Source of the DNA: Nitrospinales bacterium
Lineage (GTDB): Bacteria; Nitrospinota; Nitrospinia; Nitrospinales; JAJDAT01
NCBI GenBank assembly: GCA_046757665.1
Contig: JBHHYO010000026.1
Span: 1 to 31,933 of the forward strand
Direction: 5' to 3'
Length of the DNA: 31,933 nucleotides
Under the pieces are notes generated by a model. It had not been told where the DNA came from. It saw only the letters and a list, made by a program, of their open reading frames with translations, and searched no databases. Position numbers and translations under genes: made by a program. Positions 2,161 to 19,797 of this stretch are shown piece after piece. Positions within the stretch are counted from its first letter, which is position 1. Each line of letters begins with the position of its first letter.

Positions 2161-2664
2161 ATGAAACGTCAATATATCCCGATCCTGCTCTCCGCAATGC
2201 TGGCCGCTACGGTGGCGGCGGCGGGGACGGGTTTTGCCCTGGAATCGGCGCGCCATGATTTCGAGCGCATCGACACCCTCTCGGACATTCCCCGGGAACC
2301 CGGATGGGGGCATCCTTCCTACCGCGGCTGGGAGGTGATGAGTATCCCGGGGCTGATCTCGACTTACTACGACCTCGACTCCAACGGCGAGCTGGACTAT
2401 ATGGTGATCCGCAAAGTGTTGCGAAAAGTCGACGCGGAAAAAACCACGGTGGACGAGGCCATTGAAACCGCCAAAAGGGACCATGTCAGCGTCTATTTTT
2501 CTAACCCGGTAATTTATTTTACGGAACGGTATCCCCTGTTTTACTGTCTGGGCGTCGATTACCGCCGCAATTGCAGGAAAATCTGGGTGGACATCTCCGA
2601 GGATGGCTTGAACGGCAATGAATCGTTGTATACCCTGTCAGCGCCCAGTCCGCATGTGCGTTAA
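2161..2664 (+). CDS. exported hypothetical protein with DxDxDG-like Ca-binding motif
   Basis: ATG 2161 gives signal peptide MKRQYIPILLSAMLAATVAAAG; DLDSNGELD motif; Cys pair; overlaps next gene by 11 nt. Confidence 0.75.
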   Translation: MKRQYIPILLSAMLAATVAAAGTGFALESARHDFERIDTLSDIPREPGWGHPSYRGWEVMSIPGLISTYYDLDSNGELDYMVIRKVLRKVDAEKTTVDEAIETAKRDHVSVYFSNPVIYFTERYPLFYCLGVDYRRNCRKIWVDISEDGLNGNESLYTLSAPSPHVR

Positions 2665-4186
2665 GAAGTACGTTTTTCTTCTGGCCGTCTTTTGCTTGTT
2701 TCTCCGGGGAGTCGGCGGGGAGCCGGCATGGGGGCACGAGGGCGATGTCCCGCCTCCGTCTTCCGGCAAGAGTTCGCTGGTCGTGGGGGAGACCATTTAC
2801 AAGCACATGTGCTCGTTTTGCCACGGGTTGGACGGCAATGGCGGCGGCAAGGCCATGGCTTATCTGTACCCGTGGGCCCGGGACTTCCGCAAAGGGATTT
2901 TTAAATACCGCTCCACTCCCGCCGGCTCGCTCCCCCGGGACGCCGACATTTTCCGCACCATCACGCGGGGCATTCCGGGGACCGCCATGCCGGCCTGGGG
3001 CGCATCGCTCACCGAGGAGGAAACCCGGGCGGTGGTCGCATACATCAAGACCTTCTCCAAACGCTTCGAGCAGGAAAAACCCAAACCTCCCATCGCCGTG
3101 GGAACGCCGCCCGCCGACACCCCGGAGGCGCTGGCCCGTGGAAAACAGATTTTCACCGAGATGCGTTGCAGTCGGTGCCATGGTAGCGACTTGAAAGGCG
3201 ACGGCCCCCTCGCCGACAACCTGTTCGACATCTGGGACCATCGGGCGTTCGTGTACGACCTCACCGACCCCAACGCCTACAAGTGGGGGTTTGAAAAAAA
3301 GGACATCTACCTGACCCTGACCGCCGGAATCGACGGCACGCCGATGAACTCTTACAGCCATCTGACGGACCCGGAGCGCTGGGACCTGGCCGCCTTCGTG
3401 CGGTCGAAAATCGACATCGGGAATTATAAGGAAGCCCTCTACGAAAGCGATCTACATGCGCAAAAAGTCGAAGGCGACATTGCCGTAGAGCCCGACGACC
3501 CCGCCTGGCTGGAGGCCCCCGCAAGGGAAGTGCACTTGATTCCCCTCAGCGCGCGCCGGGCTCCCGTCAACGGCATCAAGGTTCAGGCGTTGGTCAACGA
3601 CGAGGCAATCGCGTTCCGGCTGGAGTGGGAGGACAAAACGCCCAACCGCTCCTCCAGCCGCCACCAGGATTTCAAGGACGCCGTCGCCATGGAGTTTGCG
3701 CTGGGCGACGTGGTGCTTCATGCCCACGGTCACAACGAACCGTTCTTCGGCATGGGCAACCGGGGCAAGGTGGTGAATATCTGGCAATGGCGCGCCGACT
3801 GGCAACAAGACATTGAAACCAAAAAAAAATTGGAATATGCTACCAAGGGGATGGACCTCGACACCATGATCTTTGGCGGCGAAGTGAATCCCGTGGAATC
3901 GCTGAATCCGTTCCGAACCGTTCCCGTCGAGGAGCTGAACGCCGAGGGCTTCGGCACCTTGACGCCGCAACCGCGGACCCGGCAGAACATCAAGGGAAAG
4001 GGCGTTTGGAAGGAAGGAAAATGGAAGGTTGTGTTTTACCGCACCCTGGACTCCTTGAACAAATGGGACGTCAAGTTCGACACTAACGCGCCGATACTGG
4101 TCTCTTTCGCGGTTTGGGACGGTTCCCACAAGGATAGAAACGGGCGCAAGGTGATTGCCATGTGGCAACGCCTGCATCTGCCCTGA
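2654..4186 (+). CDS. diheme cytochrome c fused to ethylbenzene-dehydrogenase gamma (EbdC/DOMON) heme-b domain; NxrC-like candidate
   Basis: Signal peptide; CSFCH and CSRCH, each followed by a distal Met (GTAMP, GTPMN); C-terminal RLEWED, DAVAMEF, PFFGMG, NIWQWRA, FAVWDG...RNGRK motifs. Confidence 0.88.
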   Translation: MCVKKYVFLLAVFCLFLRGVGGEPAWGHEGDVPPPSSGKSSLVVGETIYKHMCSFCHGLDGNGGGKAMAYLYPWARDFRKGIFKYRSTPAGSLPRDADIFRTITRGIPGTAMPAWGASLTEEETRAVVAYIKTFSKRFEQEKPKPPIAVGTPPADTPEALARGKQIFTEMRCSRCHGSDLKGDGPLADNLFDIWDHRAFVYDLTDPNAYKWGFEKKDIYLTLTAGIDGTPMNSYSHLTDPERWDLAAFVRSKIDIGNYKEALYESDLHAQKVEGDIAVEPDDPAWLEAPAREVHLIPLSARRAPVNGIKVQALVNDEAIAFRLEWEDKTPNRSSSRHQDFKDAVAMEFALGDVVLHAHGHNEPFFGMGNRGKVVNIWQWRADWQQDIETKKKLEYATKGMDLDTMIFGGEVNPVESLNPFRTVPVEELNAEGFGTLTPQPRTRQNIKGKGVWKEGKWKVVFYRTLDSLNKWDVKFDTNAPILVSFAVWDGSHKDRNGRKVIAMWQRLHLP

Positions 4187-4221: not shown

Positions 4222-5760
4222 ATGGCTGGTGACGAGAAGCTGGACCCGGATGAAAAAAATGAGCAGGACCTCCCCATCGACGAATCGACCGACCTCGCGC
4301 AAACGCGGGGAGACGAAGTCGATTTGGGCGACGAGGATGAAGTTAACCTGGAAAGCGCGGAAGGGCGGGAATCCGAAAAGGGCGCCGTCCTGATCCTCGG
4401 ACAGGGAGACCCCACCATGTGCGAGGCCAACCGGGGGGCGGACGACCCCGGCGACAACACGCTGAGCGAGCCTCAATACGTCTGCAAGTACGGGGAAATG
4501 CTTTTTGTTTCCGACCGCGGCAATCATCGCGTACTGGTCTGGGACCAGATTCCCCAGGAAAACGGCGAGCCCGCCGGGGTTGTGCTGGGCCAGGAAGATT
4601 TCGCCGACTGCCTGGAAAACCGCGGCATGACCACCACGCTGGATGAAATGACCTCCGGCGTCGGCGACGAAGACCTGGACGGATTCACCGTTACCAAATC
4701 GGGCGAGGACAGTCTATCGCAACCGGCGGGCGTGGCGGTGATCGACGGCAAACTCTACGTGGTGGACAGCGGCAATCATCGTGTTGTCCGGTGGGAGACA
4801 CTGCCCTCGGAGGATGGCGAGGCGCCCGGACTGGTGCTCGGACAGGACAATCTCGAGGATGGCGAGTGCAACCGCCGCGGCAATGTCGGCTCGGGCTCCC
4901 TCTTTTTCCCCATGGGCATCTGTTCCGGCGACGACCAGCACGTCTTTGTGGTCGACAAGGACAATCACCGGGTGCTGTTCTGGAAGAAAATTCCCTTCAG
5001 CAACGGTTGGAACGCGGACATCGCCCTGGGACAGGCCAGCATGGACGAACGGGAACCCAACCGCGGCGATTTCGACAATACCCGGGCGGATACCCTGAGT
5101 TTTCCCACCGGCGTTTGTTATGACGCCGAGAACGACCGGCTGTTCGTGGTCGATCAGGGAAACAACCGGGTTTTGATCTGGAACAAGCTCCCCAACAGCG
5201 TGGGACAGCCCGCCGACGTGGTGATCGGACAAAAAGATTTTCACGGCCGAACGCCCAACGCCGGTCAGGGAACCGCCAATGTGTCGGCGGAGGGTTTGTA
5301 TTTCCCCACCGATGTTACGTACGGCAGGAAAGGTTTGTTTGTTTCCGATACGTCCAACAACCGGGTTTTGGTCTGGAAAGAAGTACCGACGGAAAACGGC
5401 CGGCCGGCGGACCTGGTGATCGGACAGAAGACCTTTACCGACAACAAGGTCAACCGGGGAGGTGAGGCCTCCGCTTGCACCTTGAACGATCCGTGCGGGT
5501 TGTTCCTGGATGAAGACCCGGAAGATGAAGAGGATATCGGCCGCCTTTATATCGCCGACCGCGGCAACTCCCGCGTTGTCGTGTGGGAAGAACTTCCCGA
5601 GCCGCCTCAAGAGGAAAAACCCGATGACGAGGAGGACGATCAAGTCGTTTATGAACAGGAAGAGCTCATGGGAGATGACGACGAATTTCTGGAAGATTAC
5701 GGCGATGAGTACGAAGACGACAACGGCGGCGACCCGTCCAAGAAATTCCCCGTAACCTGA
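4222..5760 (+). CDS. NHL-repeat beta-propeller protein with acidic termini
   Basis: Six repeats of LxVxDxGNxRVLxW...(VLGQxDF); very D/E-rich N- and C-termini; no signal peptide. Confidence 0.88.
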   Translation: MAGDEKLDPDEKNEQDLPIDESTDLAQTRGDEVDLGDEDEVNLESAEGRESEKGAVLILGQGDPTMCEANRGADDPGDNTLSEPQYVCKYGEMLFVSDRGNHRVLVWDQIPQENGEPAGVVLGQEDFADCLENRGMTTTLDEMTSGVGDEDLDGFTVTKSGEDSLSQPAGVAVIDGKLYVVDSGNHRVVRWETLPSEDGEAPGLVLGQDNLEDGECNRRGNVGSGSLFFPMGICSGDDQHVFVVDKDNHRVLFWKKIPFSNGWNADIALGQASMDEREPNRGDFDNTRADTLSFPTGVCYDAENDRLFVVDQGNNRVLIWNKLPNSVGQPADVVIGQKDFHGRTPNAGQGTANVSAEGLYFPTDVTYGRKGLFVSDTSNNRVLVWKEVPTENGRPADLVIGQKTFTDNKVNRGGEASACTLNDPCGLFLDEDPEDEEDIGRLYIADRGNSRVVVWEELPEPPQEEKPDDEEDDQVVYEQEELMGDDDEFLEDYGDEYEDDNGGDPSKKFPVT

Positions 5761-7673: not shown

Positions 7674-8744
7674 CTATTCGATCCAGCCGCCGCCGACAAT
7701 GCAATCGTTGCGATAGAACACCGCCGCCTGGCCCGGCGCGATGGCCAACTGCGGTTCATCGAAGGCCACCCGGACGCGCCCGTCCGCAAGCCGCGTCAAA
7801 TCGGCCGCGGCGGCCCGGTGGCGCGAACGAATCTGCACCGCCGCCCGGAACGCCGTGTCCGGCTCCAGGCACCAGTTCACCCGGTCCACGAAAAATTCCT
7901 TGCGGAAAGTTTCCCGCTTGGGCCCCACGGTAACCTCGTTGCGTTTTGCGTCGATGCCGGTGACAAAATAAGGTTCGCTCAAGCCGCCCAGGTTCAAGCC
8001 TTTTCTTTGCCCGACGGTGTAGGCGGCAAAACCCTTATGGGTCCCCAAAACCGTGCCGGACGAATCGACCACCGGCCCGTCCCTGAAAATTTTTCCGTCC
8101 GATTGCCTGGCCAGAAATTTGGAATAATCATTGTCCGGGATGAAACAAATCTCCTGCGACTCGGATTTCTCCGCCACCGGCAAGGCCAGGGAGCGCGCCA
8201 GGTCCCGCACCTCATGTTTTTTCATGCCGCCCAGGGGAAACATCAGCCGGCGGATTTGATCCTGTGACAGGTTAAACAGGAAATAGCTTTGGTCCTTGCT
8301 CGGGTCCCGGCCCCGGCGAATGGTCAGCCTTCCCGACTCGTCCCGCGCCACCGAGGCGTAGTGCCCCGTGGCCAGAAAATCGCACCCCAGAATTTCGGCG
8401 CGTTTCATGAGTTGGTCGAATTTGACTTTCTGGTTGCACAGCGTACAGGGAATCGGCGTCCTGGCCTGCTGATATTCGGAGACGAAGTAATCGACCACCT
8501 CCTCCTTGAACGCCTTTTCCATGTTCAGGATGTAAAACGGAATTTCCAGTTTGTCGGCGACGCGGCGGGCATCGGCCAGGTCGTCAAGCGAACAGCAGGT
8601 GCCGAACCGGTCGTCGGTGTCGGAACCGTAATCCCAGAGTTGCAGGGAAATGCCGATCACATCATGGCCCTGCTGTTTTAACAGCGCCGCGGCGACGGAG
8701 CTGTCAACACCGCCGCTCATTGCCACTACGATTTTTCTTTTCAT
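7674..8744 (-). CDS. mnmA: tRNA 2-thiouridine(34) synthase MnmA
   Basis: AMSGGVDSS, PCTLCN, ATGHYA, KDQSYFL, SQEICF, TVGQRKGL, PGQAAVFY. Confidence 0.97.
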   Translation of the reverse strand: MKRKIVVAMSGGVDSSVAAALLKQQGHDVIGISLQLWDYGSDTDDRFGTCCSLDDLADARRVADKLEIPFYILNMEKAFKEEVVDYFVSEYQQARTPIPCTLCNQKVKFDQLMKRAEILGCDFLATGHYASVARDESGRLTIRRGRDPSKDQSYFLFNLSQDQIRRLMFPLGGMKKHEVRDLARSLALPVAEKSESQEICFIPDNDYSKFLARQSDGKIFRDGPVVDSSGTVLGTHKGFAAYTVGQRKGLNLGGLSEPYFVTGIDAKRNEVTVGPKRETFRKEFFVDRVNWCLEPDTAFRAAVQIRSRHRAAAADLTRLADGRVRVAFDEPQLAIAPGQAAVFYRNDCIVGGGWIE

Positions 8745-10713: not shown

Positions 10714-12246
10714 CTAAATCCAGCTGTTGCGGTCGAGGGTGCGGTACTGGATGGCCTCGGCGACGTGCTCGGACTGGATATCGGCCTCGCCGGCGAGGTC
10801 GGCGATGGTGCGGGCGACTTTCAGGATGCGGTCGTGGGCGCGGGCGCTCAGCCCCAGCTTGTCCATGGCCATCGCCATGATGTTTTTCGACGCCTCGTCC
10901 AGCGGGCAATGGGCCTTGATTTGCCGCGTGTTCATCTGTGAATTGGAATAATTGCGGGCATCCCGGAACCGTTGCAACTGCACCTTGCGCGAGCGTTCGA
11001 CGGATTCGCGGATGGCGGCGGAGGATGCGCCGACGTTTTCCGAGGACAGCTCCTGGTACTCCAGCGCCGGGACTTCGATATGAATGTCGATGCGGTCCAG
11101 CAGGGGGCCGGAGATGCGGGAAAGGTATTTTTTGATCTGCAAGGGCGTGCAGTGGCATTCGCGCTTGGGGTCGGACTGGTAGCCGCAGGGGCAGGGGTTC
11201 ATCGCCGCCACCAGCATGAAGTTGGCGGGATAGGTCAGCGACCCGGCGGCACGGGCGATGGACACCGTTCCCTCCTCCAGCGGCTGGCGCATGACTTCCA
11301 GCACGTTGCGCTTGAATTCCGGCAGTTCGTCGAGGAACAAAACGCCGTTATGGGCGAGAGAAACCTCGCCGGGCGTGGGGAACCGCCCGCCGCCGATCAA
11401 ACCGGCGTCGGAAATCGTGTGGTGCGGTGCGCGGAACGGCCGCCGAACCACCAGGCCGGGACCGTTTTTGAGCAGGCCCATGATGCTGTGGATTTTCGTC
11501 GTTTCGATAGCTTCGTCGAGGGTCAGCGAGGGCAGGGTGGTGGGCACCCGCTTGGCCAGCATGGATTTGCCGCTACCCGGCGGGCCGATCAGCAAAATGT
11601 TGTGGCCGCCGGACGCGGCGATTTCCAATGCCCGCTTGACATGTTGCTGACCCTTGACGTCGGTGAAATCGACGTCATACCCCGGGCATTGGAAAACGTC
11701 TTCGTCCGCGGCGAAAGTTTGCGGCGCCACGTCCAGGGCGCCGCCGAGAAATTCCAGGGCGGCGGGCAGGCTGTCCATCGGATAAACCTTCAATCCCTTG
11801 ACCACCGCCGCCTCACCGGCGTTTGCCGGCGGCAGGATGATGCTGTCGATGCCTTGCCTTGCGGCCATCGTCGCGATGGACAACGCGCCGCGCACCGGCT
11901 TGATGCGCCCGTCCAGCGACAGCTCGCCGAGAATCACGCTACGCGAAAGAGACTCCTTGTCGATGAGGCCGTTGGCCGCGAGGATGCCCAGGGCAATGGG
12001 CAGGTCGAAAGCGGAGCCTTCTTTCTTGATGTCGGCGGGGGCGAGGTTGACGGTGATCCGGCGCAACGGCAATTCCAGCCGGGTGTTCTTGATGGCGGCG
12101 GTCACCCGGTCGCCGCTCTCCTTGACCGCCGTATCGGGCAGGCCGACGATCGACATGCCCGGCACGCCGACCGCGAGGTTCACCTCCACCTCCACCAGAT
12201 AGCCCTCGATGCCCAGCACCGCGCCGCTTTGCACTCGCACCATCAT
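10714..12246 (-). CDS. comM: YifB/ComM family Mg-chelatase-like AAA+ ATPase
   Basis: [65 protein letters not shown]. Confidence 0.95.
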
Positions 12247-12494
12247 ACGAATCACCTCGCCGAAATTCCCGAAGCTTGCCAGACGGAAAAACTACGGATA
12301 ACGGTACACCAGCGGGACTTCGCGGTCAAGCCGACGCTTTTTACACGGAAACCTTAAATAATTTCACCGAATCGAGTAATATAGAATGGTTGTCGATAGG
12401 GCGGAACCGCATCGGTCGACTTAAAGAATTTTGAGTCGCGGGCCGATATGGCTTATGACGCGGGTTTTGCGTGAAACTTTTCGATGGTGCTTGT

Positions 12495-14753
12495 ATGGCG
12501 GTGAAACGGCCGAAACATTTGCTCATCATCGGTGGCGGAGTGTTCCAGGTGCCGCTCATCAAGGCGGCCAGGGAAATGGGCCTGAAGGTGGTGGTGACCG
12601 ATTACAACGCCGACGCGCCGGGAATGTTGCCGGCCGATTTTCCGCTCGTGGTCAGTACGCGCAACATCAACCTGACGGTGAATGCCGCCAGGGAGTTCCA
12701 CCGGGAATGCCCGCTGGACGGAGTGATGACCGTGGGGACGGATGCCTCGCAGACCGTCGCCGCCGTGGCCAATGCCCTGAGCCTGCCCGGCATCCCTTTT
12801 GAAGTCGCGGAACGGGCCACCGATAAAATCAAGATGCGCCGCTGTTTGAGGGAAAACGGCGTGGCGGTGCCCGATTTCCGCCCGGTTTGGACTTTTGAGG
12901 AGGCCCATCAAGCGGTGCGGGAAATGGCGCTTCCGCTGGTGATCAAGCCCTGCGACAACATGGGCGCCCGCGGCGTCAAGAAAATTCAGCAGGCGGAGGA
13001 CCTGACCGCCGCTTTTTACGAGGCCAAGGAGCAGTCGGTCAGCGGCAACCTGATCGTTGAGGAATTCATGGACGGGCCGGAGTTGAGCCTCGACGCCCTG
13101 GTGTTTGACAATCACATCGAGATCACCGGCATCGCCGACCGGATCATTGAGCGCTCGCCCTATTTTGTGGAAGTGGGGCATACCATGCCCTCGGACCTGC
13201 CGCGCGCCCGGCAGGAGGAGGCGGCGCAACTGTTCCAGGCCGGCATCCGGGCTTTGGGGATTGATATCGGCGCCGCCAAGGGCGACCTCAAGATCACGCC
13301 GTCCGGACCCAAAATTGTCGAAATCGCCGCCCGCCTGAGCGGCGGCTGGATGTCCGCCTACACCTATCCCCTGTCCACGGGCATCAACCTGTTTAAAGCC
13401 GCGATTGAAATTGCCCTGGGAGGCAGGCCGACGGATTTGCGGCCCCGCAAATCCTGGGTCGCCGCCGAACGCGCCCTGACGCCCGCGCCGGGGAAAATCC
13501 TCTCCATCCGCGGCGTGGACGAGGCGCGGAAAATCAAGGGAATCGCCGAAGTCATCCTCATGAAGGAAGCAGGCGATATCGTCACCGAACTCAAAAGCAA
13601 CCTGGGCAAAACCGGGTACGTGATCTCCGTCGGCAAGACGCGCCGCGAAGCAATCCAACGCAACAACCTGGCCCGCGGAACCATCAAGATCGAAACCGGG
13701 CGGACGGATGCGCTGACCTGGGATATTATCCGCAACAATGCCCGCAAAAAATTTTATACCGCCTGCAAGGCCTGCCCGGTCTGCGACGGCGTGGAATGCG
13801 CCGGCAGGGTTCCCGGCATCGGCGGCATCGGCGTCGGCAATTCGTTCACGGAAAACCTGGCGGCGCTGGCGCGGTACAAAATCAATCTGCGTACCCTGCA
13901 CAACGTCAAAACCCCGGACCTTTCCGTGGAGCTTTTCGGGCGCAAACTGGATATTCCGGTCCTGGCCGCTCCGATTACCGGCATGGAAACCAACCTGGGC
14001 GGGGGAATGAGCGAAAAGGAATACGCCGAGGCGGTGCTGGACGGCTGTATTAATTGTGGCACGCTGGGAATGGTCGGCGACGGCGCCAGCCCGGACAAGT
14101 ACCGGATCGGTCTCGAGGTCATCCAGAAGATGGGCGGTCTTGGCGTGCCGATTTTCAAGCCCCGGGAATCCAATTGGCAGATCATCAAGCGGTTCCAGGC
14201 GGCGCAGGAGGCCGGGGCTATTGCCGTCGGCATCGACATCGACGCCGCTTCCTTTAAAACCATGTTGATGAAGGGCCAGCGCGTTGCGCCGAAAACCATC
14301 GACGAATTGCGCGAGTTGCGAAAGCATCTGTCCGTGCCGTTCATCCTCAAGGGAATCATGAACGCCGAGTCTGCCCTGGCGGCGGTCGAGGCGGGAGCCG
14401 ACGCCATCGTGGTCTCCAACCACGGCGGGCGGGTCATGGACTACATGCCCGGAACCGCCGATGTCCTGCCGGAAATCGCCTCCGCGGTTGCCGGCAGGGT
14501 CAAGGTGCTGGTTGACGGCGGCATCCGCGAGGGTATCGATATTCTCAAAATGCTCGCGCTGGGCGCCGACGCGGTCATGATCGGCAGACCCGTCTGCATC
14601 GCCGCCTTTGGCGCGGGCCGGGAAGGCGTCGAATTCTTCCTCCAGGAAAAAACCCGGGAACTGCGGCAGGCGATGATCCTCACCGGTTGCCCCGCCGTGA
14701 ACAGCATCGACCCCGCCGTGATTGTCCGGGACTCCAAGGGCAGACACCGATGA
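12495..14753 (+). CDS. fusion: ATP-grasp ligase plus FMN-dependent alpha-hydroxy acid oxidase/dehydrogenase with Cys4 motif
   Basis: N-half: DKIKMR, PLVIKP, GARGV, VEEFMDGPE, EIAARLSG; C-half: CKACPVCDGVEC, APITG, ILKGI, VSNHGGR, DGGIR, IGRP; one uninterrupted ORF (alternative GTG start 12471). Confidence 0.9.
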   Translation: MAVKRPKHLLIIGGGVFQVPLIKAAREMGLKVVVTDYNADAPGMLPADFPLVVSTRNINLTVNAAREFHRECPLDGVMTVGTDASQTVAAVANALSLPGIPFEVAERATDKIKMRRCLRENGVAVPDFRPVWTFEEAHQAVREMALPLVIKPCDNMGARGVKKIQQAEDLTAAFYEAKEQSVSGNLIVEEFMDGPELSLDALVFDNHIEITGIADRIIERSPYFVEVGHTMPSDLPRARQEEAAQLFQAGIRALGIDIGAAKGDLKITPSGPKIVEIAARLSGGWMSAYTYPLSTGINLFKAAIEIALGGRPTDLRPRKSWVAAERALTPAPGKILSIRGVDEARKIKGIAEVILMKEAGDIVTELKSNLGKTGYVISVGKTRREAIQRNNLARGTIKIETGRTDALTWDIIRNNARKKFYTACKACPVCDGVECAGRVPGIGGIGVGNSFTENLAALARYKINLRTLHNVKTPDLSVELFGRKLDIPVLAAPITGMETNLGGGMSEKEYAEAVLDGCINCGTLGMVGDGASPDKYRIGLEVIQKMGGLGVPIFKPRESNWQIIKRFQAAQEAGAIAVGIDIDAASFKTMLMKGQRVAPKTIDELRELRKHLSVPFILKGIMNAESALAAVEAGADAIVVSNHGGRVMDYMPGTADVLPEIASAVAGRVKVLVDGGIREGIDILKMLALGADAVMIGRPVCIAAFGAGREGVEFFLQEKTRELRQAMILTGCPAVNSIDPAVIVRDSKGRHR

Positions 14754-15547
14754 AATCGAAACGGTTCAAAGTGCTGAAGCGCCCGGACGCCCGGACGCAA
14801 TGGCTGGAAGCCTTGCGCCGCCTGAAAACCCGGTTCGGGGCTTGCGGCCTGAAACTGTCCACCGAGGACGCGGCGATGAGCCTGGAGCAGATCGACTACT
14901 GGAGCCGGTTATGTTCGGGCATCGTGCCGGTCGTCGTCAAAATCGGCGGCCCCAACGCCCGCGGCGACATCAAGCGCCTGCTGACCATGAAAATCGACGC
15001 TCTCGTCGCGCCGATGGTGGAATCGCCGTACGGCCTGGAGAACTATATCGACGCGGTGCGCGACTTCACCACGCCCATTCGGTTTGCGGCGCTCGGTAAG
15101 CGCATCAATATCGAAACCCGCACCGCCGTGGAGCAACTGGACGCCATTCTGGCCTCGCCGCCGGCGGCGCACCTGGATGAAGTCACCATCGGCTGTACGG
15201 ATTTATGCAAATCCATGCAATGCTCTCTTCGGGACCCCGCTCTTCTGGCTTGCGTCAAGGATTGCGTGGCGAAAATACAGTCGAAGGGTCTCAAGGTATC
15301 CGTGGGCGGCGGCGTGTCCCCCAATGACATCGACGCCCGGTTGCGCGATATGTTGCCGGACAAATTCAATACCCGCCTGGTGACGTTTGACGTGCGCCCC
15401 GGCCACAGTTATCGCGATGCCGTCGGCGAGGCCCTGGAACTGGAAATGTCGATGCTGGCCATCGACCGGGAAAAGGGGTTTATTTCCGGGGAAGAAGAAA
15501 AGTTCCGCGTTCGGGAACTCGAAAAACGGTTGCCTCCCGGAGAGTGA
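14750..15547 (+). CDS. HpcH/HpaI aldolase / citrate-lyase-beta (CitE) superfamily protein
   Basis: ATGA overlap with upstream stop; VKIGG, APMVES, INIET (Glu) and IGCTDL (Asp) metal-ligand positions, VGGGV. Confidence 0.8.
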   Translation: MKSKRFKVLKRPDARTQWLEALRRLKTRFGACGLKLSTEDAAMSLEQIDYWSRLCSGIVPVVVKIGGPNARGDIKRLLTMKIDALVAPMVESPYGLENYIDAVRDFTTPIRFAALGKRINIETRTAVEQLDAILASPPAAHLDEVTIGCTDLCKSMQCSLRDPALLACVKDCVAKIQSKGLKVSVGGGVSPNDIDARLRDMLPDKFNTRLVTFDVRPGHSYRDAVGEALELEMSMLAIDREKGFISGEEEKFRVRELEKRLPPGE

Positions 15548-15616
15548 AATTCGGGTTTCCATTGCCGCCGCGAGCCGGCATTTCCCCGCTTTTTTGATGC
15601 GTGCCGGCGAAATCTA

Positions 15617-15651
15617 TAAAAATTTGACAAAATTTTTAATTGGTTTAAACT
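15617..15651 (+). promoter_or_regulatory. candidate aclBA promoter with palindrome over -35
   Basis: TTGACA 15624-15629, 16-nt spacer, TAAACT 15646-15651; TAAAAATTT-GACA-AAATTTTTA inverted repeat 15617-15638. Confidence 0.45.
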
Positions 15652-15797
15652 GCTTATTTGACAATCCAACTCAATGGGTTCATGGGGCAGGGCAAAATGC
15701 CTTTCCCCAAAAAATTTTGCCTAAATAGGCTCTTTTTGCTCATAATCATCCCCGTTGCGGATGTCGTGAGCCGAATATTTTCAAGCGGGAGAGACCG

Positions 15798-17066
15798 ATG
15801 CAACTGACCGGTATGCTCTGGGGACGCAAGTTATTGGACCTGGTCGAATTCCCTCACTCCGAGGTTCGGGGGCCGGAGGCCAGCGTGGACGATATCAAGG
15901 CGTTGATCGAGAAGCATGGGGAAATTTTTATCAAACCGGTGTTCAAGGGAGGCGTGGGGAAAAAAGGCAAATCGGGGTTGATCGGCCGGGTCAACAACAT
16001 CGCCGATGCCTTGAAGGAAAAAGAGCGTCTTTACTTTGCCACCCATCAGGTGGAGCACCACAAGGTCAAGGCGGACGGGGTGACGTTCGAGGGCGCGGTG
16101 CCGGCCAAGCATGAAGTTTATTTCTCCCTCAGCGACAGCACGGTTTACCGCGCTCCCACCATGACCATCACGCACCACGGCGGCGTGGACATCGAGGAAC
16201 TGCCGGCGGATAAAATCGCCCAGGTGCCGTTCGATGCGTTGACCGGGCTGAAAGCGTTTCACGTCTCCAACGCCTTGACGGGGTTGGGAGCGCCGCCGGA
16301 GATCATCAGCCCCCTGGTGCAGAATCTGCCCAAACTCTGGGACCTGTACAACAACTACGGCATGATCCTGCTGGAACTCAACCCCATCCGCATGATGAAC
16401 CGCAAGGGGCGGCTGTTGCCGGTTGCCTGCGATTTCAAGGCCGCGTTCGACATCGACGACCCGTCGTGGAAGCGTTTGCGCCTGCCTTCCCACCTGTTCG
16501 CCTCCGATTATTCCGAGTTCGAGCAGGAGATCAACCAGCTCCGGACGTACCAGGGGCAGAGCGACGTCTTCGTCATCAACGACCAGGGCACCATCACGGC
16601 GCCCACTTTCGGCGGCGGCGCCAATGCCATGGTGACCGAACTGCTGGGCGAGGCGGCCACCATTTCCTCCGACTTCGGCGGCAACCCCCCGTATGCCAAG
16701 ATGAACGAAATCGCCAAAATCACCTTCAAGTACTGGTTGCCGCGGTCGAACGTTTTGTTCATCATCGGCGGCAAGGCCAACAACACCGACATCTATGAAA
16801 CCTTCCGCGCCATGGCGGATGGCCTGAAAGAGTTTTTTCAAACCCACGGCCCCATTCCCCTGTTTGTCGTGGTCGGCCGGGGCGGTCCGAACTTGATCCG
16901 CGGCATGTCCTATCTGCGCGACACCCTGGAGGCTCTCGGACTGCCGTACCGTTTTTTCGGGCACGACAGCGCCATGTCCGAGGTCATCAATTACGCGATG
17001 GCAGTGAACCAGTGGATGGCGAACGGGGGCAAGGAAGCAATTAAAACTAAAATGCAAATCAAATAA
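15798..17066 (+). CDS. aclB: ATP citrate lyase beta subunit
   Basis: SucC-like ATP-grasp (IKPVFKGGVGKKGKSG, HHGGVDIE, LELNP), GGGAN, DFGGNP, IGGKANNTDI, GRGGPN; GGGAG RBS. Confidence 0.92.
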   Translation: MQLTGMLWGRKLLDLVEFPHSEVRGPEASVDDIKALIEKHGEIFIKPVFKGGVGKKGKSGLIGRVNNIADALKEKERLYFATHQVEHHKVKADGVTFEGAVPAKHEVYFSLSDSTVYRAPTMTITHHGGVDIEELPADKIAQVPFDALTGLKAFHVSNALTGLGAPPEIISPLVQNLPKLWDLYNNYGMILLELNPIRMMNRKGRLLPVACDFKAAFDIDDPSWKRLRLPSHLFASDYSEFEQEINQLRTYQGQSDVFVINDQGTITAPTFGGGANAMVTELLGEAATISSDFGGNPPYAKMNEIAKITFKYWLPRSNVLFIIGGKANNTDIYETFRAMADGLKEFFQTHGPIPLFVVVGRGGPNLIRGMSYLRDTLEALGLPYRFFGHDSAMSEVINYAMAVNQWMANGGKEAIKTKMQIK

Positions 17067-17085
17067 GCCGTTGGAGGTTTGTGCA

Positions 17086-19797
17086 ATGCACCAAAAGGGA
17101 GTGGAAGCGTTTCCTTATTATGTAGGGATCAATTCGCTGGCCGAATTGGCGACCCCGCAGGATAAGGTTGTGGTTTTGAACATCCTGGGAAAGGAAAGCT
17201 CCGGGGTAACGCCCATCAGCCATGAATATTCCGGAGGCAATATCGTTTTCGGAACCGGGCCGGGGAAATCGGGCAAGTTTCTGGAGACCCGGCTGGGAAA
17301 AATCCCGGTTTACAACTCCATCAAGGAAGGCCGCGCCGCCGGGCACCGGTTCAATACGGTGGTGGTTTACCTGCCGCCCTCCGGGGTGAAGGATGGCGTC
17401 GCGGAAGCGGTGCGCCAAAACCCCGAATTGAAAAAAGTCGTTGTCCTCACCGAAAAAATTTCGGTCAAGGATGCGCGCATCATGCGGGCCATCTGCCAGA
17501 CCAACGGCGTGGACTTGTTCGGCGGTAACTGTTTGGGCCTGGCGGACTCATGGAACCACGTCCGCATCGGCGGCGCCCTGGGCGGCAGTCACCCGGAGGA
17601 GTCGTTGATCAAGGGCAGTGTCGCCATCTTCTCCAATTCCGGCAACTTCACCACCACCATCGCCGTGTACCTGGCTACTGCCGGCTGGGGAACCACCACT
17701 TCCGTGTCCAGCGGCAAGGACGTTTATATCCAGTACGGACCCAAGGAGTTCCTTTATGCCTTGGACCATGACGACCGCTCCAAGGCCGCCGTTTTGTACT
17801 GCGAGCCGGGAGGCTATTACGAGCGCGGGATCGAAAGTGAAAAACCCCTGGTCGCCTGCGTCGTTGGGCGTTGGAAAGCCAAGCTGACCAAGTCCTGCGG
17901 CCATGCGGGGTCGCTTGCGGGGTCCGGCGACGACGCGCTCGCCAAGGAAAGATGGTTTATGGAGTATTTCGGGGTTGACGGTATTTACACGCCGAGCAAA
18001 CCGGTGTTTTCCAAAAAGGGCGCTCTGGTCACCAATATCGCGCATATTCCCGAGGCGCTCACCCGCGTCATGGAAGCCAACAAGGTGAAACCCGATTTTG
18101 CGCCCCGGGGCAATCTTTCGCTGAAATGCTGGTTCGGCAACAATGGCGGACTGCCGTTGCCGAAGGAACTGGATGTGCCGGTGGTGCGGGCTCTGTCGCC
18201 TTATGACCAGCAAATCGCGCTGTTGGAAAAACAGGTGGGCGCTCTTTTCCGACGGGAAACCCTGAAAGATGCCAGCGGCGCTTCCATGATGGACCCGAAA
18301 ACCCAGGTCTCCAAAATCCACAATGTTTCCATCCTCGACGCCTCGCGCAAGTCTTTCGAGTCCAATCTGGTGTTTGCCCTGGTCAAACAATATCCCTGCG
18401 AGGCGGGCGAGGCGCTGGCCAATGTGGCGTTGAACGGTTTTGTCAACCTGCGCGGCCATGCGGCGCTCACCGCGGCGGAAGCGGCCCGGCAGAACGGCAA
18501 CTCGCCCAATACGGTGCTTGCCGCCGTTGCCGCCATCATGGGGAAAAAAACCGCCCGGGCCGCCATGGACGCCGCCGCGGCGCTTCTGGAACTCTTCCAG
18601 TTTTCCGAGATGCGCGACGCCATGGAGGATTTCGATTACGCGGACATTTTGAAAAACGCGGCAAAGCACAAGGAGGCGTTGCTTCCCCAATCCGGCGATG
18701 GCCGTGGCGAACTTATGGCCCGGGCGGCGGGCGCGGGCAACTCGGTTTTCATGAAGTTCTGCCTGGACTTCGCCAGGGAAAACAAGGTTGCCTTGTCCCA
18801 GGACACCGTGCTGGCGGCGATTTGGATGACGCTGGGATGGAACAGTTTAAAAACGAAACGCATTTCGAAGGAAACCCTGATCGCACTGCCCTGGTACTCC
18901 AAACTGTTCAGCGCCCTGGTCGGAGCTACGGCGCCTGCCGGCAAGCATGATGAAAACGCTTTTTGCGGCATGTCCATGGATGACCTCATCGGCAAATGCA
19001 GTTTCACGCGAACGGCATTCATGGCCCTGCTGGGGCGGGAGCCCAAGCAGGAGGAACTGTTCGAGTTCCAGGTTCTTCTCGGCTTGATCATCACCAACGG
19101 GCCGGGCACCATCTCGGCGCAGGGAGCCAAGGGCGCCGTCAGCGCCGACGGTCCCGAACAACCGGACCGCGTGCAGATCAACAAGGCATTTGTCGGGTTT
19201 CTGACCCACACGGGCTTTGCCCACGGCGGCAACGGCTACGAGGCCGCGGCGTTTCTGATCGAACAGTTTAAAAACACCTCCTTGAAAAGTCCCGCCGACG
19301 CCAACCACGGCATCGACCTGGACAAACTGGCCATGGATTACGCGCAATCCTACGCGGCTTACAAGAAAGAACAAAAGGGACTCGGCAATCTCAACTACGC
19401 CAAAATCCCGTGCGTCAACCATCCCGTGTTCAAGGGCAAACCGGTCAACGTGGACCCGCGCGAGGAGTTTGTCGGCAACCTGTTCAAGGAAAAAGGGTTG
19501 CACAATGTTTTCCTCGATTTTTATCACAGCCTCGTTCAGGCTCTTTTCAAGGCGGAAGTCAGCAGTAACGTTTATTGCGTGAATGTCGATGCCGTCATTG
19601 CCGTGATCATGCTGAAAGTGGTCTGGGAGGATTACAAAGCCGGCCGGTTGGCGGAAAACGACATCGAAACCGCCAGCTTTGCCACGTTCCTGTTTGGCCG
19701 CATGATCGGCTGTGCCGCGGAAATCGACGATCATCTGAATCGCGGACGCAACATGGATACGCGGACGCCCGCGAGCCGATGCACCTTTGTGGGCTGA
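17086..19797 (+). CDS. aclA: ATP citrate lyase alpha subunit, long (~900 aa) form
   Basis: CoA-binding/SucD-like N-terminus (GGNCLG, SNSGN), phospho-His GHAGS, C-terminal citryl-CoA lyase region (GFAHGG, VNHPVF, NVDAVI); GGAGG RBS before ATG 17086. Confidence 0.92.
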   Translation: MHQKGVEAFPYYVGINSLAELATPQDKVVVLNILGKESSGVTPISHEYSGGNIVFGTGPGKSGKFLETRLGKIPVYNSIKEGRAAGHRFNTVVVYLPPSGVKDGVAEAVRQNPELKKVVVLTEKISVKDARIMRAICQTNGVDLFGGNCLGLADSWNHVRIGGALGGSHPEESLIKGSVAIFSNSGNFTTTIAVYLATAGWGTTTSVSSGKDVYIQYGPKEFLYALDHDDRSKAAVLYCEPGGYYERGIESEKPLVACVVGRWKAKLTKSCGHAGSLAGSGDDALAKERWFMEYFGVDGIYTPSKPVFSKKGALVTNIAHIPEALTRVMEANKVKPDFAPRGNLSLKCWFGNNGGLPLPKELDVPVVRALSPYDQQIALLEKQVGALFRRETLKDASGASMMDPKTQVSKIHNVSILDASRKSFESNLVFALVKQYPCEAGEALANVALNGFVNLRGHAALTAAEAARQNGNSPNTVLAAVAAIMGKKTARAAMDAAAALLELFQFSEMRDAMEDFDYADILKNAAKHKEALLPQSGDGRGELMARAAGAGNSVFMKFCLDFARENKVALSQDTVLAAIWMTLGWNSLKTKRISKETLIALPWYSKLFSALVGATAPAGKHDENAFCGMSMDDLIGKCSFTRTAFMALLGREPKQEELFEFQVLLGLIITNGPGTISAQGAKGAVSADGPEQPDRVQINKAFVGFLTHTGFAHGGNGYEAAAFLIEQFKNTSLKSPADANHGIDLDKLAMDYAQSYAAYKKEQKGLGNLNYAKIPCVNHPVFKGKPVNVDPREEFVGNLFKEKGLHNVFLDFYHSLVQALFKAEVSSNVYCVNVDAVIAVIMLKVVWEDYKAGRLAENDIETASFATFLFGRMIGCAAEIDDHLNRGRNMDTRTPASRCTFVG

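Follow-up and report, generated by a model that had tools for sequence, protein, structure and literature searches.

ATP-grasp L-amino-acid ligases, flavin mononucleotide (FMN)-dependent alpha-hydroxy-acid oxidases and class II pyruvate aldolases are the closest described relatives of three catalytic domains encoded side by side in a contig of a Nitrospinales bacterium (JBHHYO010000026.1, assembly GCA_046757665.1). In glycolate oxidase, a carboxylate clamp of two tyrosines and one arginine lies in the N-terminal half of the protein, while in HpaI a catalytic arginine, R70, polarises the carbonyl of pyruvate. The window, that is the whole stretch of 31,933 nt analysed here, contains a fusion gene that joins an ATP-grasp ligase, a four-cysteine (Cys4) motif and an FMN_dh-like domain, followed at once by a gene for an HpcH-like protein, the stop codon of the first overlapping the start codon of the second in an ATGA at positions 14750-14753. 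An AT-rich gap of 250 bp separates this pair from aclB and aclA, the genes of ATP-citrate lyase (ACL), an enzyme of the reductive tricarboxylic acid (rTCA) cycle. Coordinates refer to the whole window and to the forward strand unless stated otherwise.

Comparison across genomes shows that the pair is a self-contained, vertically inherited and dispensable module, and that its place beside aclBA is an inherited ancestral gene order of Nitrospinota with no mechanistic tie to ATP-citrate lyase. The best explanation of the whole combines this module with a pantothenate-like chemistry, and its probability is put at roughly 0.45. Its structural and evolutionary part is highly probable, but the three-step chemistry attached to it is possible and still doubtful. 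Neither the ATP-grasp/Cys4/FMN_dh architecture nor the HpcH-like subfamily has a characterised member, although all three parts come from well-known superfamilies.

A literature search turned up nothing that describes the fusion or the pair or gives either of them a function. The genes upstream of acl go unmentioned in the accessible portion of the N. gracilis genome paper (PMC3578206). In a 2010 Leptospira microarray table, a protein of the fusion's description, LA2659, is listed as hypothetical; judged by that description, it is probably the fusion orthologue. The fusion is as strongly conserved as ATP-citrate lyase and near-universal in Leptospirales. This order includes the agents of leptospirosis, and Nitrospinota are the main marine nitrite oxidisers, so that this uncharacterised enzyme is core to organisms of medical relevance as well as to these oxidisers.

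Domains and conserved residues of the two proteins

All Pfam matches of the fusion protein exceed their cut-offs: FMN_dh with 228 bits (residues ~440-745), LAL_C2 with 63.6, ATP-grasp_4 with 60.4, ATP-grasp_3 with 49.9 and ATPgrasp_N with 35.7. The best solved relative of its ATP-grasp part is the L-amino acid ligase BL00235 (3vot; E 8.2e-36, residues 4-358), followed by RizA (4wd3; 8.7e-13) and BacD (3vmm; ~1e-9). By domain content and similarity this part is of the ATP-grasp L-amino-acid-ligase type, with dipeptide formation as a predicted activity. An AlphaFold2 (AF2) model of the fusion reaches a mean predicted local distance difference test score (pLDDT) of 85.6, with values mostly above 90 in the ATP-grasp part. 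The sole long segment below 50 is the cysteine stretch at residues 422-446, as would be expected of a loop whose folding depends on a bound metal. The four cysteines are invariant in 26/26 fusions and in the 15/15 rows of an alignment that includes stand-alone relatives of the flavin domain, and presumably form a metal or iron-sulfur site.

The same two sets, 26/26 fusions and 15/15 rows, also keep K619, H643 and R646, the last two within SNHGGR. With its profile match, its catalytic His/Arg pair (HGGR) and its flavin-adjacent lysine, the domain qualifies by sequence as a member of PF01070. Alignment to solved hydroxy-acid oxidases is confined to the C-terminal half (594-744), and residues 405-594 remain unaligned with solved FMN_dh members except for a patch of 33 residues. 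Invariant residues K555-P556-R557 and D581/D583 may replace the carboxylate clamp. The NCBIfam scores lie far below the cut-offs for LldD (138.1 versus 550), L-lactate oxidase (110.1 versus 645.5), MftD (119.3 versus 470.85) and type 2 isopentenyl-diphosphate isomerase, IDI-2 (59 versus 281.3); equivalog cut-offs are approached neither by the fusion nor by the HpcH-like protein.

The nearest relatives of the flavin domain are stand-alone proteins of ~338 aa that start at the Cys4 motif and share 52-58% identity with it. Their hosts are strict anaerobes (Carboxydothermus, Ammonifex, Thermodesulfovibrio, Desulforudis, Clostridium), which makes O2 an unlikely physiological electron acceptor. Across Nitrospinota the fusion is 72-84% identical, comparable to aclB in the same loci (79-84%), and its identity to the Leptospirales fusions is 44-48%. 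This degree of conservation indicates strong purifying selection on the fusion.

The HpcH-like protein scores 33 bits against HpcH_HpaI (PF03328; cut-off 25), and its AF2 model is a TIM barrel with a pLDDT of 96.5. The nearest solved folds found by Foldseek are HpaI, YfaU, HpcH and SwHKA (probability 1.0, template modelling score 0.55-0.61), at an identity of only 16-18%. Profile and modelled fold together thus place it in the HpcH/HpaI aldolase/citrate-lyase superfamily. Thirteen residues are invariant in a 40-sequence family alignment: K35, E39, K64, G66, G67, A70, D73, P88, E91, E122, D151, S155 and E232. Among them, the metal ligands E122 (in NIET) and D151 (in GxxDL), unchanged in 40/40 members, fall within the stretch that a profile alignment places on the metal-ligand segments of YfaU (2vws, 142-212) and HpaI (138-207).

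The protein remains well below the equivalog cut-offs of the characterised HpcH subfamilies (HpaI, GarL, RhmA, CitE, malyl-CoA lyase), with 21.8 against 368.8 for the HpaI equivalog and 15.4 against 393 for the GarL-type PRK10558; a citE model is matched by one of 40 family members, at E 6e-4. With a threshold of E 1e-3 the family has 632 cluster representatives, a number that falls to 331 at 1e-10; it is a distinct branch of the superfamily without a characterised member. At residues 148-155 (15191-15214), the near-invariant GRxDLSxS of the wider family is replaced in the Nitrospinota clade by GCTDLCKS, with a cysteine in place of the arginine beside the metal-binding aspartate. Some look-alike clusters in the ESM Atlas have few taxon-labelled members, all of them viruses (Nucleocytoviricota, Uroviricota).

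A reading of the window made from the sequence alone had proposed an ATP-grasp ligase, an oxidase and an aldolase of the HpcH/CitE superfamily with intact Glu/Asp metal ligands; the three modules are all present, the last two as an FMN dehydrogenase-like domain and an HpcH-like barrel of metal-dependent type, and the ligands are conserved as described. Its coordinates, gene order, ATGA coupling and distance to aclB were likewise correct.

Distribution and gene order in Nitrospinota

By the names of their sources, the close relatives of the pair belong to Nitrospinota (Nitrospina, Nitronauta, Nitrohelix). A survey of 120 genomes of this phylum, with thresholds of E <1e-50 for the HpcH-like orthologue and E <1e-100 for the fusion, found the former in 55 and the latter in 63. 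Both genes occur in 54 genomes and neither in 56; nine have the fusion only and one the HpcH-like gene only. Seven of the nine belong to a single genus, g20, and two are fragments at contig edges (G094, G104), while the sole genome of the opposite kind (G038) has its HpcH-like gene at a contig start. The pair is adjacent wherever both genes were mapped. When distant paralogues are counted, an HpcH-like family member accompanies the fusion in 59/63 fusion-bearing Nitrospinota genomes and in 144/149 of those in Leptospirales. The sequence-only reading had made its case depend on co-occurrence of the two genes in other genomes, and the survey bears this out.

Mapping of 20 related loci by tblastn showed the pair adjacent and co-directional in 18. 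The order fusion-hpcH-aclB-aclA is contiguous in 11 loci, with a spacer of ~200-350 bp. In four others, 2-7 kb of DNA intervenes between hpcH and aclB (a radical SAM gene, a gene for a 1878-aa repeat protein, or genes for a histidine kinase and a helicase) and leaves the pair intact; in G075 the pair and acl are on different contigs, and two loci lie on contigs too short to place acl. The pair thus stays together across inserts and away from acl. A chance pair of open reading frames (ORFs) is excluded, because both proteins have hundreds of relatives and their synteny is kept in 18/20 Nitrospinota loci.

Losses of the pair are scattered over families f2-f5, and the genomes that lack it include eight near-complete assemblies of no more than eight contigs (G022-G025, G036, G071, G072, G074). 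In G072 and G074 the deletion is clean, with ~700 bp from comM to aclB. Two further genomes retain scars immediately before an aclB that is itself intact: what is left in G073 is the C-terminal half of hpcH, with no fusion (L231, G073:C1 8629-9043), and in G079 residues 75-162 of the fusion only (L235, G079:C60 4328-4591). Since comM and aclB have closed up in some genomes and remnants persist in others, repeated deletions that removed only the pair must have worn down the ancestral order comM / fusion-hpcH / aclBA. No conserved extra pathway gene accompanies the pair in Nitrospinota; the flanks vary and include pentapeptide-repeat proteins, an aldo-keto reductase, histidine kinases, a giant repeat protein and radical SAM proteins. 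A polysaccharide context, one of the options raised from the sequence alone, is not conserved around the pair, and neither is a natural-product context.

Candidate functions and rival explanations

By analogy with PanB, PanE and PanC, we infer that this is a housekeeping module in which a small conjugate of an acid and an amine is made or processed by the same kinds of chemistry. The HpcH-like barrel, with Mg2+ or Mn2+, would make or cut a C-C bond adjacent to a 2-oxo-acid group by way of an enolate that the metal stabilises. The FMN domain would interconvert 2-hydroxy and 2-oxo forms, or else oxidise a C-N bond at that carbon (the 2-amino form), and its electrons would probably be passed on through a metal or iron-sulfur centre held by the four cysteines, and not to O2. 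The ATP-grasp domain would convert a carboxylate into an acyl phosphate and join it to an amine, with an amino acid as the likeliest candidate, and the fusion would allow the product of one active site to pass to the other. A predicted complex of the fusion (1-745) with the HpcH-like protein (12-262) scored 0.00, which gives no verdict and weighs neither way.

Two replacements of known enzymes were considered and rejected: the pair as an alternative pantothenate synthetase, since PanC is present in 113/120 Nitrospinota genomes irrespective of the pair, and the pair as a biotin-free pyruvate carboxylase, since PYC_OADA is present in 108/120, again irrespective of it. The pair displaces no known function among those tested.

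Several observations weigh against a joint three-step pathway. The presence of PanC regardless of the pair reduces the pantothenate comparison to an analogy, and the usual direction of FMN_dh enzymes is oxidative. In the HpcH-like family the invariant Lys64 (VKIGG) stands at what we take to be the position of the catalytic arginine of the aldolases, in a region where the alignment is not significant, and R149, near-invariant in the family, is a cysteine in the Nitrospinota clade; for both reasons, classical pyruvate-aldolase chemistry is not assured. Genus g20 (G078, G081-G084, G087, G088) keeps the fusion in seven genomes that have lost the linked HpcH-like gene. In its two loci among the 20 mapped (L042, L043), the promoter spacer of aclBA, and then aclB, comes straight after the fusion; paralogues of the HpcH-like gene at 30-37% identity lie elsewhere in five of the seven genomes.

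More distant groups add to these objections. A pattern scan with a 12-sequence alignment of distant HpcH-like relatives gave 273 relatives, of which the best 80 were examined; nearly all of these come from Leptospirales or other Spirochaetota, along with three from Bathyarchaeia, and within 6 kb of the HpcH-like gene no ATP-grasp, FMN or acl relative occurs at any of the 80 loci. A full-length fusion, at 45-49% identity, is encoded elsewhere in the genome in 4/4 Leptospirales genomes tested. Among 151 sampled Leptospirales genomes, the fusion was found in 149 and the HpcH-like protein in 145, nearly always as single copies, and the two genes are unlinked, never adjacent. Because both are near-universal there, these data are neutral on a joint function of the two genes. 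In the three Bathyarchaeia loci (L107, L110, L128) the HpcH-like gene, at 38-40% identity, lies between a divergently oriented malic enzyme gene and one for an ADP-dependent phosphofructokinase/glucokinase, assignments checked with Pfam in L107 and L128 and made from the same ORF pattern in L110; in L107 a phosphoenolpyruvate synthase gene lies two genes beyond. The fusion is absent from the one Bathyarchaeia genome searched, which thus has an HpcH-like protein without it.

The flavin domain can also be found alone. A search with a flavin-domain alignment gave 80 metagenome loci, 10 with fusions and 70 with stand-alone genes. Three of the 10 fusions are of the Nitrospinota type, with hpcH and aclBA, and seven have no hpcH in the flank, one of these with mnmA upstream. 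No ATP-grasp or HpcH-like gene occurs within 6 kb of the 70 stand-alone genes, and no partner gene recurs consistently beside them. Each protein can thus do without the other, and it may be that the three-step scheme is mistaken. Genes found beside the stand-alone ones encode MutS2, UvrC, HolA, LepA, ArgRS, IleRS and a pseudouridine synthase, each once or a few times, and otherwise transporters, regulators, radical SAM proteins and ACT/DUF711 pairs. Taken with the neighbours of the fusion in Leptospirales, described below, this context points to a housekeeping rather than a catabolic role.

The main rival explanation draws on these same data and treats the two genes as neighbours with no functional relation. 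The HpcH-like protein would then be a stand-alone aldolase or decarboxylase of central carbon metabolism that acts on pyruvate or oxaloacetate-type 2-oxo acids, the fusion would have a separate function, and the adjacency of the two would be historical. The lack of linkage in Leptospirales, the carbon-metabolic setting of the Bathyarchaeia loci, the g20 genomes and the HpcH-like paralogues that occur without the fusion in G010, G011 and G100 all speak for it. However, the start and stop codons overlap in the window and the gaps are short in several other genomes (6-66 bp), the pair moves and disappears together, and it is intact in five loci apart from acl. We regard this explanation as unlikely, yet as one to be taken seriously.

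A broader proposal, improbable as it stands, is that the fusion, alone or together with the HpcH-like protein, produces a housekeeping molecule common to Leptospirales and many Nitrospinota. One candidate is a new tRNA modification that carries an amino acid on uridine-34 or thiouridine, at which the recurrent position of the fusion or its flavin-domain relatives next to mnmA, mnmG and a thiouracil desulfurase gene hints; the other is a new vitamin-like acid-amine cofactor with pantothenate-style chemistry.

Taken by itself, the view that the fusion is an RNA-modification enzyme is somewhat less probable again. It would act on tRNA uridine-34 or thiouridine, the flavin oxidising a side-chain C-N or C-O bond, as in MftD or MnmC-type oxidases, and the ATP-grasp domain adding an amino acid. 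In the genus Leptospira, 6/6 loci, together with the metagenome locus L200, have the co-directional cluster mnmA - fusion - PilZ-like - RluD-like pseudouridine synthase, and mnmG is the divergent neighbour of the fusion in four of six other Leptospirales loci. A 2-thiouracil desulfurase gene (PF04463), Pfam-checked in L158 and assigned by clustering in the other loci, lies directly upstream of the stand-alone flavin gene in three loci (L158, L160, L161). RNase HII is encoded beside stand-alone flavin genes in five loci (among them L163, L165, L166 and L177) and a pseudouridine synthase in one, and in the window mnmA, which encodes the tRNA 2-thiouridylase (7674-8744, minus strand), is 3.7 kb upstream of the fusion.

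On the other side, none of the 20 other Nitrospinota loci has mnmA close to the fusion, the remaining neighbours of stand-alone genes are mixed, the fusion has no RNA-binding domain, and the HpcH-like partner is left without a role. Nor is there a complementary pattern with MnmC, although PF05430 gives only marginal matches in the phylum and is therefore uninformative. The genomic context is a weak lead to uridine or thiouridine RNA chemistry. In L158 and L160, MutS2 is encoded upstream of the 2-thiouracil desulfurase gene.

A role as accessory of ATP-citrate lyase or the rTCA cycle, by glyoxylate or glycolate salvage or on oxaloacetate or citrate-derived intermediates, would account for the place of the pair directly upstream of and co-directional with aclBA, in 11/20 related loci as in the window. 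Citryl-CoA lyase, malyl-CoA lyase and the citrate synthase SbnG moreover belong to the HpcH superfamily and are all among the fold matches. The pair is nevertheless excised in place with aclBA left intact, and aclB is found in 100/120 Nitrospinota genomes, of which 50 have the pair and 50, eight near-complete ones included, do not. Pyruvate carboxylase subunit B is encoded in 108/120 genomes whether or not the pair is there.

The spacer itself points the same way. Its alignment over 11 loci, two of them without hpcH, shows an invariant TTGACAA, a TAnAAT ~17 nt further on that is invariant or nearly so, and a conserved GGAG before the aclB ATG; aclBA is thus predicted to be driven by its own conserved promoter, although transcriptional read-through from the pair may occur. 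In five Leptospirales genomes, a search with AclA gave only a succinyl-CoA-ligase-alpha-like match (30-31% identity, residues ~20-309). The function of both genes is therefore separate from the rTCA cycle, because they are core genes in an order without ATP-citrate lyase (five genomes checked).

By its co-occurrence with aclBA the pair does not belong to the ATP-citrate lyase or rTCA gene set, and the predicted promoter of aclBA speaks against dependence on a shared transcript; the accessory role is largely refuted and very improbable. The promoter-like signals noticed in the AT-rich spacer from the sequence alone proved to be real and conserved in 11/11 loci, and the caveat that adjacency to acl might be incidental was borne out; the suggested tie to the rTCA cycle or to glycolate/glyoxylate salvage is not supported, in view of the promoter, the mere 50 of 100 aclB genomes with the pair, the in-place deletions and the core status of both genes in Leptospirales, where the five genomes checked lack AclA. 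In annotation, the pair should not be read as part of an rTCA operon.

A dipeptide-antibiotic or natural-product cassette built around an L-amino-acid ligase, suggested by LAL_C2 and by BL00235, RizA and BacD as nearest relatives, can practically be dismissed, as the fusion is a single-copy, near-universal core gene in Leptospirales (44-100% identity), is highly conserved among its Nitrospinota carriers and has no conserved exporter, resistance or tailoring genes nearby.

Layout of the locus and comparison with known systems

Table 1. Positions of the module, its parts and its immediate neighbours in the window
Feature	Coordinates	Strand	Remarks
ComM/Mg-chelatase-like AAA+ gene	10714..12255	-	Pfam Mg_chelatase and ChlI
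Fusion gene, 752 aa, ATG 12495 to TGA 14753	12495..14753	+	ATP-grasp ligase, Cys4 motif, FMN_dh-like domain
ATP-grasp part, residues 1 to ~404, L-amino-acid-ligase type	12495..13706	+	ATPgrasp_N, ATP-grasp_3/4, LAL_C2
FMN_dh-like TIM-barrel domain, residues ~405-752	13707..14750	+	Pfam FMN_dh; K619, SNHGGR (H643, R646)
Four-cysteine motif CxxCxxCx4C (C424, C427, C430, C435)	13764..13799	+	Opens the flavin domain; invariant
HpcH-superfamily TIM-barrel gene, 265 aa	14750..15547	+	ATG 14750; Pfam HpcH_HpaI
Terminator-like hairpin across the HpcH-like stop codon, weak	15536..15555	+	Pattern scan
Predicted sigma-70-type promoter of aclBA: TTGACA, 16 nt, TAAACT	15624..15651	+	10/12 consensus matches; conserved
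aclB (ATP-citrate lyase beta-type subunit), neighbour outside the module	15798..17066	+	Pfam Citrate_bind, ATP-grasp_2
aclA, 908 aa as listed, neighbour outside the module	17071..19797	+	Succinyl-CoA-ligase-alpha-like N-terminus, weak citryl-CoA-lyase C-terminus

The comM-like gene, found upstream of the fusion in 10/20 related loci, is a kept upstream boundary of the locus and lies outside the module. The hairpin at the end of the HpcH-like gene is no evidence of termination, as the region has five terminator-like sites against a shuffle mean of 4.9. A search of 12000-16000 against Rfam, with E up to 0.1, found no match. Among sequencing runs, four of DNA contain the stretch or a part of it, two of them perhaps from the source sample, and no RNA run does.

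For aclA the listed ORF opens with a TTG at 17071; since every relative aligns from residue 6 onward and no earlier, the real start is probably the ATG at 17086. Between its two recognisable parts, the AclA protein has ~300 residues (~310-620) without assignment in Pfam or NCBIfam. This middle fits what the accessible portion of the N. gracilis genome paper says of that divergent ACL, namely a 'very low similarity to known ACLs' (PMC3578206). Further upstream in the window, a 522-aa protein (2618-4186, plus strand) combines two cytochrome c domains with an ethylbenzene-dehydrogenase-type (EB_dh) domain, and its gene is followed by one for an NHL-repeat protein with an acidic tail (4222-5760).

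Each part of the module resembles a described system and departs from it. The N-terminal 400 residues of the fusion share ATPgrasp_N, ATP-grasp_3/4 and LAL_C2 with the L-amino-acid ligases BL00235, RizA and BacD, whereas the fusion adds the Cys4 motif and the FMN domain and is a core housekeeping gene, not a member of an antibiotic cluster. The FMN alpha-hydroxy-acid oxidases and dehydrogenases (glycolate oxidase, L-lactate oxidase, LldD, mandelate dehydrogenase, MftD) have in common with it the His/Arg of SNHGGR and the lysine at flavin N1, but the N-terminal half of the flavin domain consists of CxxCxxCx4C and divergent strands. With the class II pyruvate aldolases (HpaI 4b5s, YfaU 2vws, GarL 1dxe, SwHKA 6r62), the HpcH-like protein shares the TIM barrel and the Glu/Asp ligands; its sequence similarity to them is limited to ~70 residues, and its family has signature motifs of its own (LKxGTExE, VKIGGPEARND, APMIES, NIET, GRxDLSxS).

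As a whole, the proposed module can be compared with the pantothenate pathway in the way it would work. PanE and PanC have no sequence relationship to the pair, and PanB belongs to the same TIM-barrel clan. The route from PanB through PanE to PanC nevertheless comprises the same three kinds of step as those suggested here: metal-dependent C-C chemistry on a 2-oxo acid, redox conversion between 2-oxo and 2-hydroxy forms, and ATP-dependent ligation of an acid to an amine.

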